Below, in pieces: positions 21,860 to 51,723 of a stretch of 64,000 nucleotides of DNA. The position numbers were made by a program, and so were the translations under genes. Below the pieces are notes generated by a model. That model saw only the letters and a list, made by a program, of their open reading frames with translations. It was not told the origin of the DNA and searched no databases. The DNA lies in assembly GCA_018920315.1 (NCBI GenBank), contig JAHLMP010000001.1, forward strand, positions 4,206-68,205, in the 5' to 3' direction. Within the stretch, counting starts at the first letter, position 1, and the number at the start of each line of letters is the position of its first letter. Origin of the DNA: Candidatus Aenigmatarchaeota archaeon (GTDB lineage Archaea; Aenigmatarchaeota; Aenigmatarchaeia; GW2011-AR5; JAHLMP01).

Positions 21860-21914
21860 AGAAAATTATAAAATAGTAATATGTTTATAATTATCAGATA
21901 ATCTCTTCCATTAT

Positions 21915-22086
21915 GCCGGAGTGGCGGAACCAGGTAACGCGCGTGGCTCGAGACCACGTGTCCCTTGTGGACTTGCAGGTTCGAAGCGATTTTCACATTT
22001 TATGAAATTATCAAAAATGAAAAATTATAAACGAATTTAATAAAATAGAATCTTGTGTGAAAATCGCAAAAATCCTGCCTCCGGCG
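21915..22086 (+). tRNA. tRNA-Ser(CGA), class II, interrupted by an 87-nt intron in the T-loop
   Basis: Exon 1 is 21915-21985 and exon 2 is 22073-22086. Acceptor gccggag/ctccggc, D stem gcg/cgc, anticodon stem cgtgg/ccacg with loop ctCGAga, variable arm gtcc/ggac, T stem gcagg/cctgc, T-loop ttcgaa|t, discriminator G. The mature product is 85 nt. Confidence 0.85.
21986..22072 (+). other. tRNA intron at a non-canonical (T-loop) position
   Basis: Its ends form a perfect 12-bp helix, gcgattttcaca (21986-21997) with tgtgaaaatcgc (22056-22067). The exact junction is ambiguous by a few nt because of flanking A runs. Confidence 0.75.
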
Positions 22087-22187
22087 TTTTTATTTCTACG
22101 AAGATTTTGCAATTTTATTTAATGAAAATTAGTGCCAAGAAAGAATTGATATACTATATATAAAAATCCACTATAAAACTATCTAAC

Positions 22188-28779: not shown

Positions 28780-28877
28780 CGCTGGGGGTGGGATTCGAAC
28801 CCACGCACCCAAAAGGGAACAGGCTTAGCAGGCCTGCGCTTGTTACTCAAAGGTCTTAACCACTTGGCTACCCCAGC
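28780..28877 (-). tRNA. tRNA-Ser(GCU), class II, with a putative 15-nt intron in the D-arm
   Basis: Acceptor gctgggg/ccccagc, anticodon stem caggc/gcctg with loop ctGCTaa, long variable arm, T arm gtggg-ttcgaat-cccac, discriminator G. The gene is 98 nt. Removing 28840-28854 restores a perfect D stem gcc/ggc and an 83-nt tRNA. Confidence 0.8.
28840..28854 (-). other. putative 15-nt tRNA intron in the D-arm 3' strand
   Basis: Minus-strand sequence acctttgagtaacaa. Without excision the D loop would be ~25 nt and the D stem mispaired (gcc vs agc). Confidence 0.55.
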
Positions 28878-47629: not shown

Positions 47630-47988
47630 TTTTTGCGATTTTCACATCGAATTTTTCATTCAATTATCGTGAATTTTCTTATAATTTTTTATTAGTTATT
47701 TGAAATTTTGAGCCTTGGGTTGAATTTTGAATTGTGATCTTTCACATTTTTAATTACGATTTTCATTTAATTTCTTTAATTTTTCGTTTTGACCTTTCTC
47801 GTGAATTTTTTCTTATTGTTTTTTCCTTTACTTTTTCATTCGACTATTACAAATCTTGTCTTTTCTGAATTGAGTTTTCAATTTACTTCATTTTTATTCA
47901 TTTTTCATTAAAATTTTTTCTATTTTCTGCCTTTTCTTCATTCTCGGTAATTCTAATTCTCACAAAGCTTGCAAGATGTGAAAACCGC
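47630..47988 (-). other. 359-nt insertion/intron in the T-loop of tRNA-Ser(GGA)
   Basis: Its ends form a 13-bp helix, gcggttttcacat (47988-47976) with atgtgaaaatcgc (47647-47635), including one G-U. The last 17 nt (tgtgaaaatcgcaaaaa) are identical to the Ser(CGA) intron 3' end. Confidence 0.7.
47880..47942. repeat. direct repeat copy A (inside the tRNA-Ser(GGA) T-loop insertion)
   Basis: aatttacttcatttttattcatttttcattaaaattttttctattttctgccttttcttcatt aligns at ~90% identity (3 gap positions) with 48134-48193. Confidence 0.8.
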
Positions 47989-48021
47989 TTCGAACCTGCG
48001 CGAGCTTAATGCTCACCAGCT

Positions 48022-48054
48022 TTTTGTTTTTTCATTACTAGACTTAAAGCTTAA
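48022..48054 (-). other. tRNA intron at the canonical 37/38 position (33 nt)
   Basis: Lies between ttggag and a-gctgg. The boundary is ambiguous by 1-4 nt in an A run. Confidence 0.6.
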
Positions 48055-48133
48055 CTCCAAGCTGGCGCTTTGGACCACTCAGCCATCCCAGCACAAAATT
48101 CTATATAAAAGAAGTGGTATCCAAAAATTAAAT

Positions 48134-49438: not shown

Positions 49439-49540
49439 ACTTTATTTTTTGTTTTTAAAGTTTAAATATTTTTATATCACTTTAAAGTAGCTACATAATT
49501 CTTATTCTCATGAAACCTCACAAATGATGTGAGAGTTACT

Positions 49541-49696
49541 TTAAAATATATTTTTTATAAAATATATTTTTTGTATAATATAAGATGAAATATATTTTAA
49601 AAAATATCTTTTATAAAAAATTTTATAACAAAAATTTATTATAGAAAATATATCATATTATATTTTTTATAAAAAATATTCCAAAATATATAATTT
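49541..49696. repeat. near-pure A/T block with repeated palindromic AAATATATTT motifs (left block)
   Basis: At least three copies of (a)aaatatatttt(tt) plus ttttataaaa variants. Segment 49559-49607 is similar to 51021-51054. Confidence 0.7.
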
Positions 49697-50167
49697 TTAT
49701 TCTCCTCCCTTTTCCTTTCTAACAAACTCTAACATAAAAATATCATCAAAATCCTTTGCGATTCTTCTTGTAGAGCGGAGAAAAGAGAGAAGAGAAGATT
49801 CTACTCTATCTATTAGTCTATTAACAGTAGGAGCTGGTAGCAAATAACCTTTCATAAAGTTATTTCCCTTTTGCACCTTTACGAATTCAAGCAACCCAAG
49901 TGTTCGCCATTTTCTTATTTCCTCGTAGGCTTGAGAAACTGAAACACCTAAAATTTTAGATATTTCTTCTATTTGAATTGGAATTTCCTCCTTCTTAAAT
50001 TTAAGAAGCTCTATCAAAAGTTTTGCATGATCTGCTCTACTTGCCTTTCTTTTTAATCCTAATCTTGTAACTATTATTTCTGCGTACTCTTCTGGAGAAA
50101 TATCTTTTTTATAATCGGGTGGATTTATTGGTCTCAATAATATGTCAGAATACATCTTCTTGGCCAT
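49697..50167 (-). CDS. small winged-helix DNA-binding protein
   Basis: IQIEEISKILGVSVSQAYEEIRKWRTLGLLEFVKVQKG is an HTH plus wing. The track start at 50200 is TTG; ATG at 50167 (MAKKMYSD) is preferred. Confidence 0.6.
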   Translation of the reverse strand: MAKKMYSDILLRPINPPDYKKDISPEEYAEIIVTRLGLKRKASRADHAKLLIELLKFKKEEIPIQIEEISKILGVSVSQAYEEIRKWRTLGLLEFVKVQKGNNFMKGYLLPAPTVNRLIDRVESSLLSFLRSTRRIAKDFDDIFMLEFVRKEKGGE

Positions 50168-50583
50168 AATATCACGATTTTTTATACTAATTTTAACCAA
50201 ATTAGCTAGGTTTTTATTTTCATTTTTTTATTGGAGTGAGAGCTAAAAATTGGTATTTTTAATATCTTTAGCACGAAACCAAGATTTCTCAATAACTTAT
50301 TTTGTGCTTGAAATTTTTAAAATTTACGGGCAATACCAATAATTATGTATTTTAGTTGGAGTGTACGAATTTCTGAAAGTTTTTGTTTTTTTAATCAAAA
50401 AATTTTTAAGAATTTTATTGGAGTAGATGATTTTCAATTATTTTGCTTTTAGTTTTCGAAAAATTATCTCACTTGCTTGAATGCAGAGTTTTTTATTTAA
50501 TACGAAATTAGAGAATTTTCTAAAATTTAATTTTAGAAACAAAATAATTTGAAATTGCTCAAATTAAATAATTGAGTTCAAAT

Positions 50584-50640
50584 CCGTTTTCCTACAGTTT
50601 TATTTTCTATAACCGTCTTTCCTACAGTTATTTTCTATAA
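50584..50640. repeat. tandem direct repeat, 2 x ~29 nt
   Basis: ccgttttcctacagttttattttctataa (50584-50612) and ccgtctttcctacagttattttctataa (50613-50640). Confidence 0.85.
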
Positions 50641-50880
50641 ATTTCTACCTTTTCGATCTGCTTGTCAACTTATTCTCATGGATATATTCATATGTTTTAT
50701 TTTTCATGTGAAGGTTTAATTCAAATTTATTTTTCTAGTAGAATATGAGTAGTCGAGTAAATTCCGAGTAATGACAAAAATTCTTAAAAATATATCCAAA
50801 ACTCAAAAATGTTTATAATCCTTCTATTTTATGTGAGGGTTTAATTATACTACATGCTTCTTAAAATATTCACAAGCATT

Positions 50881-51180
50881 AGTTAAAAGAAATAAAAAGA
50901 ATAGTAAAAAATATAAAATAAAAATTATATATTTAAATAGATTTTTCTTACAAAATGTTTTATAAAGTATTTATTGTAAAAGATTTTATAAGAAATATTT
51001 TATGCAAATAATTTTTTACTAAATATATTTTGTATATAATATTTTAAAAAATATATTATGTAAAATATAATTGCTTTTAAATGTTTGTGAGACTTTAATT
51101 TAAATAGATATAAAAATATATATTTTATTAAATATATTTTTAAGTAGACAACAAAGAAATAAAATTAATAATAAAATTAA
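50881..51180. repeat. near-pure A/T block with repeated palindromic AAATATATTT motifs (right block)
   Basis: Copies near 51021, 51050, 51113 and 51132. Contains TGTGAG-motif copy 4. Confidence 0.7.
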
Positions 51181-51266
51181 AATGTGAGCAAAATCTTAGA
51201 AAATAATGAAAGCAAAATTCTAAAAGTGATTCATCTGTTAATAAGCTAGAGTACGCTTTTGTTTAT

Positions 51267-51290
51267 TGTGAGAGTTGAATTGAGAATTGG
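51267..51290 (+). promoter_or_regulatory. putative promoter (TGTGAGAG element plus TATA-like ttgaattgagaatt) for a leaderless small ORF
   Basis: The A/T-rich element starts ~25 nt upstream of ATG 51301. The same element recurs 5 more times in the region. Confidence 0.35.
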
Positions 51291-51300
51291 ATAAGAGAGA

Positions 51301-51498
51301 ATGGAAGTAAAAAAGAAAATGGAAAAAATGAAAGGTTAGAAAAGAGCTCTTTTAATCTTTTTGCTTCTAGTAGGCGTGGCATTAGTTGGATGTTTTGCGT
51401 TTTTTGAAATGCCAACCAGTGAAAATTACATCCTTGCTCCACACGCACCAAAACCTGGTGAATGTACAACGTTACCAGTTATTGTGCATGAGAGCTAA
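51301..51498 (+). pseudogene. 65-codon signal-anchor micro-protein ORF interrupted by an in-frame TAG at 51337-51339
   Basis: MEVKKKMEKMKG-TAG-KRALLIFLLLVGVALVGCFAFFEMPTSENYILAPHAPKPGECTTLPVIVHES-TAA. A basic n-region and a hydrophobic h-region lie in one frame across the stop. This is the most GC-rich patch of the region. Confidence 0.45.
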
Positions 51499-51723
51499 TT
51501 ATGAAACTAATACAGAAAGGTTACTGAATAAAAAAATTAAACGTCAAACAAAAAATTAAAATGAATATTAATTGAAGATTTGATTTTTATAATGTAGATA
51601 TTTTTGTGAGAGTTGATAAAATTTTAGATTATTCTTGAATTATATTGAATTCGCTATAAATAAGTTTAGAATTTAATAAGTGTGGATTTAGCTTTTTCAT
51701 TATGATGAGTATAGTTATGGATA

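Follow-up and report, generated by a model that had tools for sequence, protein, structure and literature searches.

In the described archaeal replication origins, such as oriC1 and oriC2 of Sulfolobus, the Pyrococcus oriC and the mini-ORB clusters of Methanothermobacter, ORB or mini-ORB repeats flank an AT-rich unwinding element (DUE) located beside orc1/cdc6. Repeats next to genes for DNA-binding proteins are also found in iteron replicons and plasmid centromeres, including RepA and its iterons with AT-rich 13-mers, ParR/parC, TubR/tubC and AspA of pNOB8, and around the genes of autoregulated winged-helix or chromatin-like helix-turn-helix proteins (Lrs14/AbfR, MarR-type, TrmB/TrmBL2), of which the TrmBL2 type coats DNA cooperatively. 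DPANN archaea have not been cultivated or are difficult to grow in culture, and our literature search yielded no description of cis-acting elements of Aenigmatarchaeota chromosomes; a full-text search for Aenigmatarchaeota origins, or for the motifs reported below, gave nothing either.

Here, we analyzed a 64-kb stretch of DNA (hereafter, the window) from a metagenome-assembled genome of Aenigmatarchaeota (DPANN), focusing on the region 49439-51723. As in archaeal origins, the region contains a long AT-rich intergenic sequence and repeated boxes of ~20 nt, with RadA, RPA and an Orc-like gene near in most relatives. Unlike in those origins, however, no initiator gene adjoins it, the boxes point one way and resemble no ORB known to us, and the ORB-like GTGAACWT repeats of the lineage are found at another locus, beside an Orc1/Cdc6-like gene. 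With iteron and centromere systems, the region shares direct boxes and short A/T-rich units in tandem, both adjoining a winged-helix gene, and the 14-bp period of these units, being off the helical repeat, implies a helical protein coat. Yet the locus is chromosomal, is kept across much of the phylum and has no mobile-element context; its boxes are spaced irregularly, by ~90-340 nt. The encoded protein has a single MarR/Rrf2-like winged helix rather than the WH1-WH2 fold of Rep proteins; tandem short repeats, as in plasmid centromeres, are present, and the gene for a partner NTPase is absent. The autoregulated and chromatin-like proteins offer a matching fold and, likewise, palindromic A/T-rich sites around their own gene and neighboring promoters, whereas the arrays considered here far exceed usual operators in size, with 10-20 tandem 14-bp units to each side of the gene, one of them lies 3' of the gene, often between convergent genes, and the conservation of the protein is unusually high.

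Organization of the locus

The features of the region are listed in Table 1. As noted previously from the sequence alone, the only solid gene within 49439-51723 encodes a 156-aa winged-helix protein, and the 1,556-nt gap at 50168-51723 has no credible ORF, the sole one of at least 60 aa being an unsupported 68-aa antisense ORF. Searches of this gap for pseudogene remnants of the Orc-like, dCMP deaminase and 98-aa winged-helix genes revealed no trace of any. The strand switch also held, with 12 ORFs of at least 90 aa and a 71-aa DUF5678 gene on the minus side, and with 10 of the 12 ORFs of this size class between 51724 and the window end on the plus strand; so did the two nearly pure A/T blocks and the clustering of short repeat families in the region (TGTGAGRSTT, TTGGAGT and a 30-nt tandem repeat). 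Two statements of the sequence-only reading did not survive: other spacers are not all shorter than ~350 nt, as the window has gaps of 710, 691, 597, 516 and 399 nt, and the tRNA-Ser called at 47986-48092 on the minus strand scores only 17.6 bits against an Rfam cut-off of 29, with ARAGORN reporting zero tRNAs in the window. At least 2 of the other large gaps contain intron-containing tRNA-like genes.

Table 1. Coordinates of features in and around the region (window numbering)
Feature	Position	Strand	Description
Terminal "class-2" element (array 3' of the winged-helix gene)	49480..49537	-	dyad AAACCTCACA-aatga-TGTGAGAGTT at 49513-49537
AT array 1	49541..49696	.	~11 tandem 14-bp units, consensus ~TTATAAAATATATT, 6% GC
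156-aa winged-helix protein gene	49697..50167	-	~60% identity across Aenigmatarchaeota
Conserved block divergent from the winged-helix gene	50220..50424	+	first 146 nt (50220-50365) gapless across 9 lineages
Three T-rich+TTGGAGT boxes	50228-50237, 50353-50363, 50415-50424	+	in conserved block
Candidate micro-ORF	50250-50342	+	TTG start, C-terminus ...FKIYGQYQ followed by stop
14-bp palindrome	50275-50288		in conserved block
Invariant ATTTTTAAAATTTACGG	50313-50329		in conserved block
Lineage-specific tandem repeat	50584..50640	+	two copies of ~29-30 nt (CCGTYTTTCCTACAGTT...TTCTATAA), variable middle part; repeat families D14, D17
Two TGTGAGRG-TTTAA boxes, proximal edge of AT array 2	50707..50841	+	50707-50716 (variant TGTGAAGGTT), 50832-50841; same position in L064, L059
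AT array 2	50881..51180	.	10% GC, 14-bp units (AAATATATTTTGTA), clearest run 50993-51076, internal box 51086-51095
Boxes beyond array 2	51183..51276	+	51183-51189 (variant TGTGAGC), 51267-51276 (TGTGAGAGTT)
Small lipoprotein-like ORF	51302..51498	+	in-frame TAG at codon 13 (MEVKKKMEKMKG, stop, KRALLIFLLLVGVALVGC...); alternative, 45-aa ORF from TTG 51361
Distal TGTGAGAGTT box	51605..51614	+	~45 nt 5' of canonical TATA (GCTATAAATAAG, ~51652-51664) ahead of 263-aa gene (ATG 51724)

Rfam searches of the region, run with the gathering cut-off and with E-values as high as 10, returned zero families at threshold and zero meaningful weak matches. The region reads as a special, selected non-coding element with a real architecture. 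The earlier interpretation was twofold: the part describing a non-coding hub is supported, since the architecture is kept in relatives and widely across the phylum, whereas the part proposing a replication origin is not. The region as a whole represents a lineage-specific expanded form of a non-coding architecture found in many Aenigmatarchaeota and bracketing the 156-aa winged-helix gene.

Arrays of 14-bp palindromic units

The two A/T blocks are more than plain AT-rich sequence, being tandem arrays of 14-bp palindromic units, ~AAAATATATTTTAT. In array 1, autocorrelation at lag 14 (z = 4.8) is accompanied by harmonics at 28 and 42 and by a repeat family, D1, with 14-nt spacing; in array 2, z equals 4.4 at lag 14 and 4.8 at lag 28. 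In the window, 13 control intergenic regions lack the period (z = 1.0). The only 100-nt segments of the 64 kb with a GC content at or below 8% (49532-49704 and 50958-51082) lie within or overlap the blocks, which also hold 5 of the 9 window copies of AAATATATTT, with 1.28 copies expected for the whole window. The units of array 2 are inverted with respect to those of array 1, and inverted-repeat pairs I5 and I9-I12 join the two.

When 22 arrays, from 19 species loci and the window's own two blocks, were pooled, the combined z reached 14.8, 10.3 and 8.6 at lags 14, 28 and 42, respectively. The arrays stay at 15-25% GC within genomes of 49-51% GC. A second array, located between RPA and the 98-aa winged-helix gene, also displays the 14-bp period (z = 8.5), which is absent from AT-rich segments outside the locus (z = 1.2).

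The winged-helix protein

The 156-aa protein has 270 homologues, with ~60% identity, throughout the Aenigmatarchaeota, and profile searches against Pfam and NCBIfam returned zero models at cut-off. The AlphaFold2 (AF2) model (pLDDT 75) is a winged helix comprising helices at residues 47-59, 66-73 and 77-89, a beta wing at 94-109 and a long C-terminal helix at 130-153. Foldseek matched it exclusively to winged helices of the MarR/Rrf2(IscR)/Lrs14/TFE-alpha type, with E-values of 1.8e-3 or weaker; the best structural matches were IscR, MarR, Lrs14/AbfR2 and the winged helix of TFE-alpha, with dimeric MarR/Rrf2/Lrs14-type regulators at the top. By the same two methods, the fold is neither WhiP/Cdt1-like nor Rep-like, plasmid initiator chains appearing only at ranks 37 and 42 with a TM-score of ~0.25 normalized to the query. 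The protein is thus predicted to adopt a generic MarR/Rrf2/Lrs14-like fold with a single winged helix and, in the model, combines a DNA-binding fold with a dimerization helix, as expected of a regulator.

Oriented boxes and the terminal dyad element

The arrays are marked off by oriented TGTGAGRG-TTWAA boxes (box form TGTGAGRGTTTAAA). Each is ~20 nt long and consists of TTTCTTATGTGAGRG followed by an A/T hexamer, e.g., TTTAAA or ATAAA. TGTGAGRSTT occurs 5 times in the window, always on the plus strand and always within the region (0.37 copies expected), with variants at 50707 and 51183 and an inverted copy at 49513-49522. A genome-wide motif was rejected for this genome because 4 of the 5 copies of TGTGAGDGW in the 64 kb are located here. 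In relatives, boxes are only ~3-fold enriched near the locus compared with other intergenic DNA, and these loci are not independent of each other in phylogenetic terms. We also rejected the boxes as ordinary promoters, given their variable distance to start codons. Ordinary promoters of this genome read ~AACTTTAAATA; in the boxes, the A/T hexamer directly follows TGTGAGRG, a promoter-like geometry. Class-1 boxes are often found 0-50 nt past a stop codon, a position that would also suit transcript 3' ends.

The terminal class-2 element reads, on the minus strand, TGTGAGGTTT, 12 nt and then GAATTATGTA, and its dyad box lies ~75 nt 5' of the ATG (49438) of a 410-aa gene, with a TATA between them. 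The orthologous element, TTTGTGAGGGTTAAAG-N8-CTATATTATA, is a single-copy feature of the locus in 20 species; its internal spacing is fixed, and it lies 130-300 nt past the stop codon of the winged-helix gene. Viral contigs scanned for it gave 0 matches. A dif/XerA site was considered for the CTATATTATA palindrome and rejected, because a single 28-bp site leaves the arrays unexplained and because the element lies ~8 kb from the origin candidate in most species.

Conservation across relatives

Seven loci (L001-L007) are 99.9-100% identical to the window and of no use for comparison. At 82% identity, L064 retains the whole expanded layout, with a gap of 1,415 nt. Beyond it, many members of the phylum, even at 50% GC, carry the same array and box design on the flanks of the orthologous winged-helix gene, and many of the 51 species loci retain chromosomal synteny. 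The arrays are located, in most relatives, within ~8 kb of RadA, RPA and an Orc1/Cdc6-like gene, forming a "replication island"; in this lineage, they no longer adjoin the origin candidate, and the genes for dCMP deaminase and the 98-aa winged-helix protein, which most relatives carry upstream of the winged-helix gene, are missing. Some lineages have the winged-helix gene and lack the downstream array, and in many species this array is positioned between convergent genes, leaving no promoter there to regulate.

A comparison with relatives had been suggested as a way of telling a conserved element from a variable island, and it favors the former, with arrays, boxes and block kept across lineages, GC-rich genomes included. 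It is therefore very improbable that the region is non-functional DNA, that is, slippage-prone AT-rich filler following a rearrangement, or a scar left where an element integrated beside a tRNA. Such a history would account for the middle part (~50440-50700), where lineage-specific tandem repeats differ between the window and L064 (the latter has other tandem repeats at the place matching 50584-50640), for the absence of the two genes present in most relatives and for the breaks of other assemblies in this region. However, the layout is retained in L064, and there are zero integrase genes, pseudogene remnants or viral matches. The conserved synteny contradicts the integration scar, one of the other ALTERNATIVES of the sequence-only reading, and the non-functional explanation is already largely refuted for the arrays and boxes.

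Origin candidate elsewhere in the genome

The proposal that the region is a replication origin is unsupported, given the lack of a local orc1/cdc6, a local skew minimum that follows the coding strand and a better candidate elsewhere; the region is probably not the chromosomal origin. The reported absence of orc1/cdc6 from the window was borne out by tblastn with a probe validated as S. solfataricus Cdc6-1 (identical to PDB 2qby_A), which detected no canonical orc1/cdc6 in the window, in 67 loci, or, for the 51 species loci, up to ~10 kb from the orthologous winged-helix gene. The Orc1/Cdc6-like family, too, has zero matches in the window. Cumulative GC skew reaches a V-shaped minimum at ~50 kb on the window scale, which is gone after coding-strand correction (residual b = -0.010 ± 0.032), so that the local minimum is explained by gene orientation. 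A pooled regression of GC3 skew over 38 loci gave b = -0.023 ± 0.006, with the sign opposite to that of an origin, a value that we distrust because orthologous genes are pseudo-replicated.

Elsewhere, the same species encodes a divergent Orc1/Cdc6-like AAA+/winged-helix protein, identified as such by structure search alone (Foldseek top hits 1w5t, 2qby, 2v1u and 1fnn), profile searches against Pfam, NCBIfam and PDB having given no Orc1/Cdc6 identity. The 1.1-kb gap ahead of its gene contains 14 GTGAACWT repeats with 11-bp phasing, direct and in some cases inverted, and a GTGAACWT cluster precedes the Orc-like gene in 25 of the 27 relatives checked. The motif is missing from 49439-51723 and has one copy in the 64-kb window, inside a coding sequence. 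Judging from these repeats, the gap is the best candidate for the origin of this species.

The region might still act as a secondary or initiator-distal origin, in which the A/T arrays would be unwinding elements and the TGTGAG boxes ORB- or iteron-like initiator sites. This is improbable in our estimation. Consistent with such a role are the long AT-rich intergenic region with oriented repeats, which is unique; two A/T blocks (156 and 300 nt) with a GC content of 6-10%, as appropriate for an unwinding element, with AT-richness held even in 50% GC genomes; the proximity of the arrays to RadA, RPA and the Orc1/Cdc6-like gene in most relatives; and single TGTGAG boxes within the Orc-gene origin candidate itself (L068 position 9412, L013 position 2389). 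By contrast, neither orc1/cdc6 nor the Orc-like gene is in the window, the candidate ORB of the phylum is missing from the region, no replication-type skew switch remains in the window once the coding-strand effect is removed, and the winged-helix protein resembles neither Rep nor WhiP. Apart from one dyad, all TGTGAG boxes are on the plus strand and are not inverted about an A/T block as ORBs are around a DUE. The much better candidate in the same species also speaks against it, and a probably small genome, whose largest contig is 577 kb, would make a second origin less likely.

Possible operator, architectural array or centromere

Our preferred reading, which we hold tentatively, is that the neighboring winged-helix protein uses the arrays as operator or architectural sites to which it would bind cooperatively, with specialized promoter-like boxes alongside. 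As putative platforms, the arrays would let dimers of a winged-helix protein bind cooperatively; most economically, this would be the protein encoded between them, with one dimer per 14-bp palindrome. The palindromic sites near its gene are the 14-bp units and the palindrome at 50275-50288. At 14 bp per unit, three units equal four helical turns, so that bound dimers would form a helical filament on the DNA. In the observed layout, the arrays are mutually inverted with boxes at their edges, a dyad box lies beyond array 1 beside the promoter of the next gene, and the conserved block separates the winged-helix gene from array 2. The boxes, laid out like an archaeal BRE+TATA pair, would serve as specialized promoter or boundary elements at the array edges, and the assembly would set the expression of the winged-helix gene and of promoters leaving the region to either side, those of the 410-aa and 263-aa genes and of the small ORFs. 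In favor of this reading are the restriction of the boxes and of segments at or below 8% GC to this region of the 64 kb, the 14-bp period and its conservation across species, the predicted fold of the protein and the promoter-like geometry of the boxes, among them the box at 51267 and the dyad box, each shortly ahead of an ATG. Counting against it are the phylum-wide identity of ~60%, which is unusually high for an ordinary regulator, the downstream array between convergent genes, the absence of that array from some lineages, the variable distance between box and start codon and the enrichment of only ~3-fold.

By analogy with plasmid systems, the arrays could instead be a centromere-like partition or architectural site, its short tandem repeats coated by a winged-helix centromere-binding protein. 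Long, window-unique arrays of tandem 14-bp units that are kept in many phylum members and adjoin a highly conserved winged-helix gene would suit such a site, as would their location, in most species, within ~8 kb of the origin candidate, reminiscent of bacterial parS. We nonetheless consider this quite improbable: neither Pfam scans and gene calls in the window nor ORF translations of L020 and L028 read by eye disclosed a nearby gene for a ParA/SegA/ParM/TubZ-type NTPase, and in this lineage the arrays are no longer beside the origin candidate. The broader proposition that arrays and TGTGAG boxes form a chromosomal centromere or second-origin-type nucleoprotein site, with the 156-aa protein as the putative coating binder, is rather unlikely. 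If true, archaea would possess a so far undescribed kind of cis-acting element for chromosome maintenance, with an ancestral link to an origin at which a highly divergent Orc1/Cdc6 acts; either a centromere or a second origin of this type would be new for archaea. If the arrays are the binding platforms of the preferred reading, they define a motif-protein pair and a marker for an uncharacterized regulatory or architectural system.

The analysis keeps apart two things that a reading of the sequence alone would merge, namely, the origin candidate, textbook-like in appearance, with an Orc1/Cdc6-like gene and 11-bp phased GTGAAC repeats kept in most lineages checked, and the distinct, equally conserved system of winged-helix gene and arrays.

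Conserved block and small ORFs

The gapless alignment of the conserved block (50220-50365) includes genomes of 43% GC. In its 14-bp palindrome, pairing is kept in 81.5% of cells, with compensatory changes in 4 of the 6 pairs; RNAalifold yielded no consensus structure for the block. The candidate micro-ORF displays peptide-like conservation, without indels in 9-10 lineages.

These features raise another possibility, that the region is a cluster of promoters for unannotated small RNAs or micro-ORFs, each TGTGAGRG-TTWAA box being a BRE/TATA-type element and the block encoding a 23-30-aa peptide (...FKIYG before the stop). The BRE+TATA-like geometry and strict orientation of the boxes are in line with this, as are an SD-like GGAGTGA 8 nt 5' of the TTG start of the micro-ORF, the indel-free peptide, the box at 51267-51276, which sits 35 nt before the ATG of the small ORF at 51302, and the third TTGGAGT box, which in L060 is the SD of a called 129-aa gene. 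Against it, nothing is conserved at a fixed distance 3' of the class-1 boxes and no consistent ORFs lie behind them, there are no Rfam matches or RNAalifold structure, the micro-ORF has a weak third-position bias and, in L059, no start codon, and the 14-bp arrays are left unexplained. We regard a promoter cluster as unlikely.

The 129-aa gene of L060 has homologues in L062 and L063, each called with a length of 68 aa, that could be followed only within that clade. The small lipoprotein-like ORF at 51302-51498 has zero homologues in related loci and is identical in the near-identical assemblies.

Gene content and composition of the region

The region at window positions 49439 to 51723 contains a single solid gene, which encodes a 156-aa winged-helix protein, and an adjoining 1,556-nt gap without credible ORFs. 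It lies at a strand switch, preceded by 13 minus-strand genes and followed by genes that are nearly all on the plus strand. In these points, and in the two almost pure A/T blocks, the sequence-only reading proved accurate, and across the 64 kb every 100-nt stretch of 8% GC or less overlaps or falls inside one of these 2 blocks. Its statement that other spacers are under ~350 nt was incorrect, since gaps of 710, 691, 597, 516, and 399 nt are present in the window. The motif TGTGAGRSTT occurs 5 times (0.37 expected), always on the plus strand and inside the region.

A small lipoprotein-like ORF with a lipobox-like signal, KRALLIFLLLVGVALVGC, carries an in-frame TAG at codon 13; its sequence is the same in all near-identical assemblies, and it may be a pseudogene, be translated by read-through, or start further downstream at a TTG. 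Of the 7 contigs carrying the winged-helix gene in the same population, 3 break off within the region or at its border (L003, L007, and L002/L005), presumably because the extreme A/T arrays are repetitive or poorly covered.

Features of the region, the window and related loci
Feature	Position	Strand	Description
Winged-helix gene	49697-50167	-	156 aa
AT array 1	49541-49696		6% GC; lag-14 z = 4.8
AT array 2	50881-51180		10% GC; lag-14 z = 4.4
Class 1 box			ttTTCTTATGTGAGaGATAaA
Class 2 box			TTTGTGAGgGTTtAA; where the array downstream of the winged-helix gene ends, followed by CTATATTATA at fixed spacing
Class 2 end element in the window	49513-49537		dyad, ~75 nt upstream of the 410-aa gene start
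Conserved block, first 146 nt	50220-50365		gapless alignment
Candidate micro-ORF	50250-50342	+	23-30 aa
Lipoprotein-like ORF	51302-51498	+	in-frame TAG
tRNA-Ser call	47986-48092	-	sub-threshold Rfam match
tRNA-like gene	21914-22096	+	GC-rich, apparently Ser-CGA
tRNA (Rfam)	28780-28877	-	98 nt
Origin candidate	L068:8890-11188 (GCA_044343345.1, JAVZLL010000001.1); also L069		gap and P0257 gene
RadA, called as 2 pieces	L068:15542-16779		277 + 101 aa, in one assembly of the species
RadA, called as 1 gene	L069:15542-16552		336 aa, in another assembly of the species
Stretch of 10% GC or less	L068:16350-16489		

Tandem arrays and boxes across Aenigmatarchaeota

In each A/T block, 14-bp units with a AAAATATATTTT core are repeated in tandem, and the period has harmonics at 28 and 42; AT array 2 runs inverted with respect to AT array 1. 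No 14-bp period was found in 13 other intergenic regions of the window (combined z = 1.0). Oriented boxes mark the limits of the arrays and form 2 classes across relatives.

Homologues of the winged-helix protein (270 sequences, ~60% identity) are nearly all from Aenigmatarchaeota. In most of the 51 species loci compared, the gene order is an AAA+/winged-helix ATPase, a small PRC-like gene, RadA, RPA, an AT-rich gap, a 98-aa winged-helix gene, dCMP deaminase, the winged-helix gene, and a second AT-rich gap. This downstream gap spans 250 to 500 nt, often between convergent genes, and has the same design in many species: 2 to 4 boxes in the orientation of the winged-helix gene, separated by roughly 100 nt of 14-bp-periodic A/T DNA, with the class 2 element terminal. 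The design is kept in genomes of ~50% GC, where the arrays have 15% to 22% GC, and the downstream array is missing in some lineages that have the winged-helix gene. The gap between RPA and the 98-aa winged-helix gene shows the same period (z = 8.5), which is absent from AT-rich segments beyond the locus (z = 1.2).

The long upstream gap is specific to the clade of the window. Comparison with relatives, suggested as a check by the earlier reading, showed that the whole expanded layout is present in an 82% relative (L064; gap of 1,415 nt), and an 88% relative (L059) aligns at 78% over 49440-50424 and has the same boxes. Between the winged-helix gene and AT array 2 sits a conserved block, the first part of which aligns in 9 lineages of very different GC content. 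It contains 3 T-rich+TTGGAGT boxes, an invariant ATTTTTAAAATTTACGG, and a 14-bp palindrome with compensatory changes in 4 of 6 pairs, and lineage-specific tandem repeats occupy the middle of the gap. Most likely, this is a locus type found nowhere else in the window that selection maintains in much of the phylum; that it is non-functional filler is highly improbable.

The block also holds a candidate micro-ORF ending in (V/I)FKIYG and a stop, with an SD-like GGAGTGA upstream. It is free of indels in 9 to 10 lineages (the window and loci L008, L009, L019, L059, L060, L062, L064, and L065), its start codon is missing in L059, and its third-position bias is weak; its conservation may reflect a peptide or DNA-level constraint. 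A cluster of promoters for small RNAs or peptides is an unlikely reading of the region.

Possible mechanism

The region most likely consists of tandem palindromic units adjoining a dimer-type winged-helix gene, the product of which is predicted to be a generic MarR/Rrf2/Lrs14/TFE-type winged helix. We tentatively suggest, at somewhat under an even chance, that the arrays would be coated cooperatively by a winged-helix protein, for which the product of the local gene is the simplest candidate, that the boxes would act as specialised elements of promoter or boundary type, and that this assembly would control the winged-helix gene together with the promoters directed out of the region. The A/T hexamer of the box is placed exactly as a TATA box after a BRE, and ordinary promoters of the genome resemble AACTTTAAATA. 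Simple promoter regulation does not explain well the arrays between convergent genes, nor the class 1 boxes located right after stop codons. Among known protein-binding repeat arrays, those of the region would be a new variant; a centromere-like site is improbable. Literature searches found no description of the arrays, the boxes or the Orc-like/GTGAAC origin candidate.

Candidate location of the replication origin

The proposal that the region is a replication origin is probably wrong. As had been noted for the window, tblastn with a verified probe, S. solfataricus Cdc6-1, found no canonical orc1/cdc6 there, nor in any of 67 loci. The cumulative skew has its minimum at ~50 kb of the window; GC skew of coding strands is ~+0.25 whatever the side or direction, and the residual term divergent from the region is -0.010 +/- 0.032. 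This local minimum is accounted for by gene orientation. In a pooled GC3-skew regression over 38 species loci, with the gap downstream of the winged-helix gene as pivot, the term was small, nominally significant and opposite in sign to the origin expectation (b = -0.023 +/- 0.006), its significance being unreliable because of orthologue pseudo-replication; genes tend to converge on this gap in most species.

By sequence, the AAA+/winged-helix ATPase that opens the conserved gene order resembles nothing in particular, but its AF2 model (pLDDT 82.5) has full-length Orc1/Cdc6 architecture, with top PDB matches to A. pernix ORC2 (E 2.9e-13), S. solfataricus Cdc6-1 and Cdc6-3, A. pernix ORC1, P. 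aerophilum Cdc6, and metazoan ORC1 and Cdc6. The species of the window encodes such an Orc-like protein, P0257 (395 aa), outside the window. The 1,111-nt gap directly upstream of its gene holds 14 of the 15 GTGAACWT repeats of the locus (0.87 expected), with 11-bp phasing, direct and inverted clusters, and GTTCACGTGAAC palindromes among them; RPA and RadA lie 3 to 5 kb downstream. GTGAAC clusters, of up to 25 copies, precede the orthologous gene in 25 of 27 other loci checked. An Orc-like gene with an upstream repeat cluster of this kind is the classical archaeal oriC signature, and in this species the gap is the strongest candidate for the origin. The cluster is not in the region, and the window has one GTGAACWT copy in 64 kb, within a gene. 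With no canonical orc1/cdc6 in the window and this cluster elsewhere, a secondary origin in the region is rather improbable. The region is not ordinary, though its interpretation as an origin is unsupported.

tRNA-like genes in the window

The tRNA-Ser call matches Rfam, but below threshold (17.6 bits) and with a 36-nt insertion. ARAGORN reported no tRNAs in the 64-kb window, and Rfam one further tRNA. The GC-rich tRNA-like gene, with CTCGAGA in the anticodon region, was missed by ARAGORN and by Rfam at E <=1; its T-arm appears to be interrupted by an AT-rich insert of ~100 nt, closed by the stem GCGATTTTCACA/TGTGAAAATCGC. This organism's tRNA genes seem to contain introns that cause standard finders to miss them.
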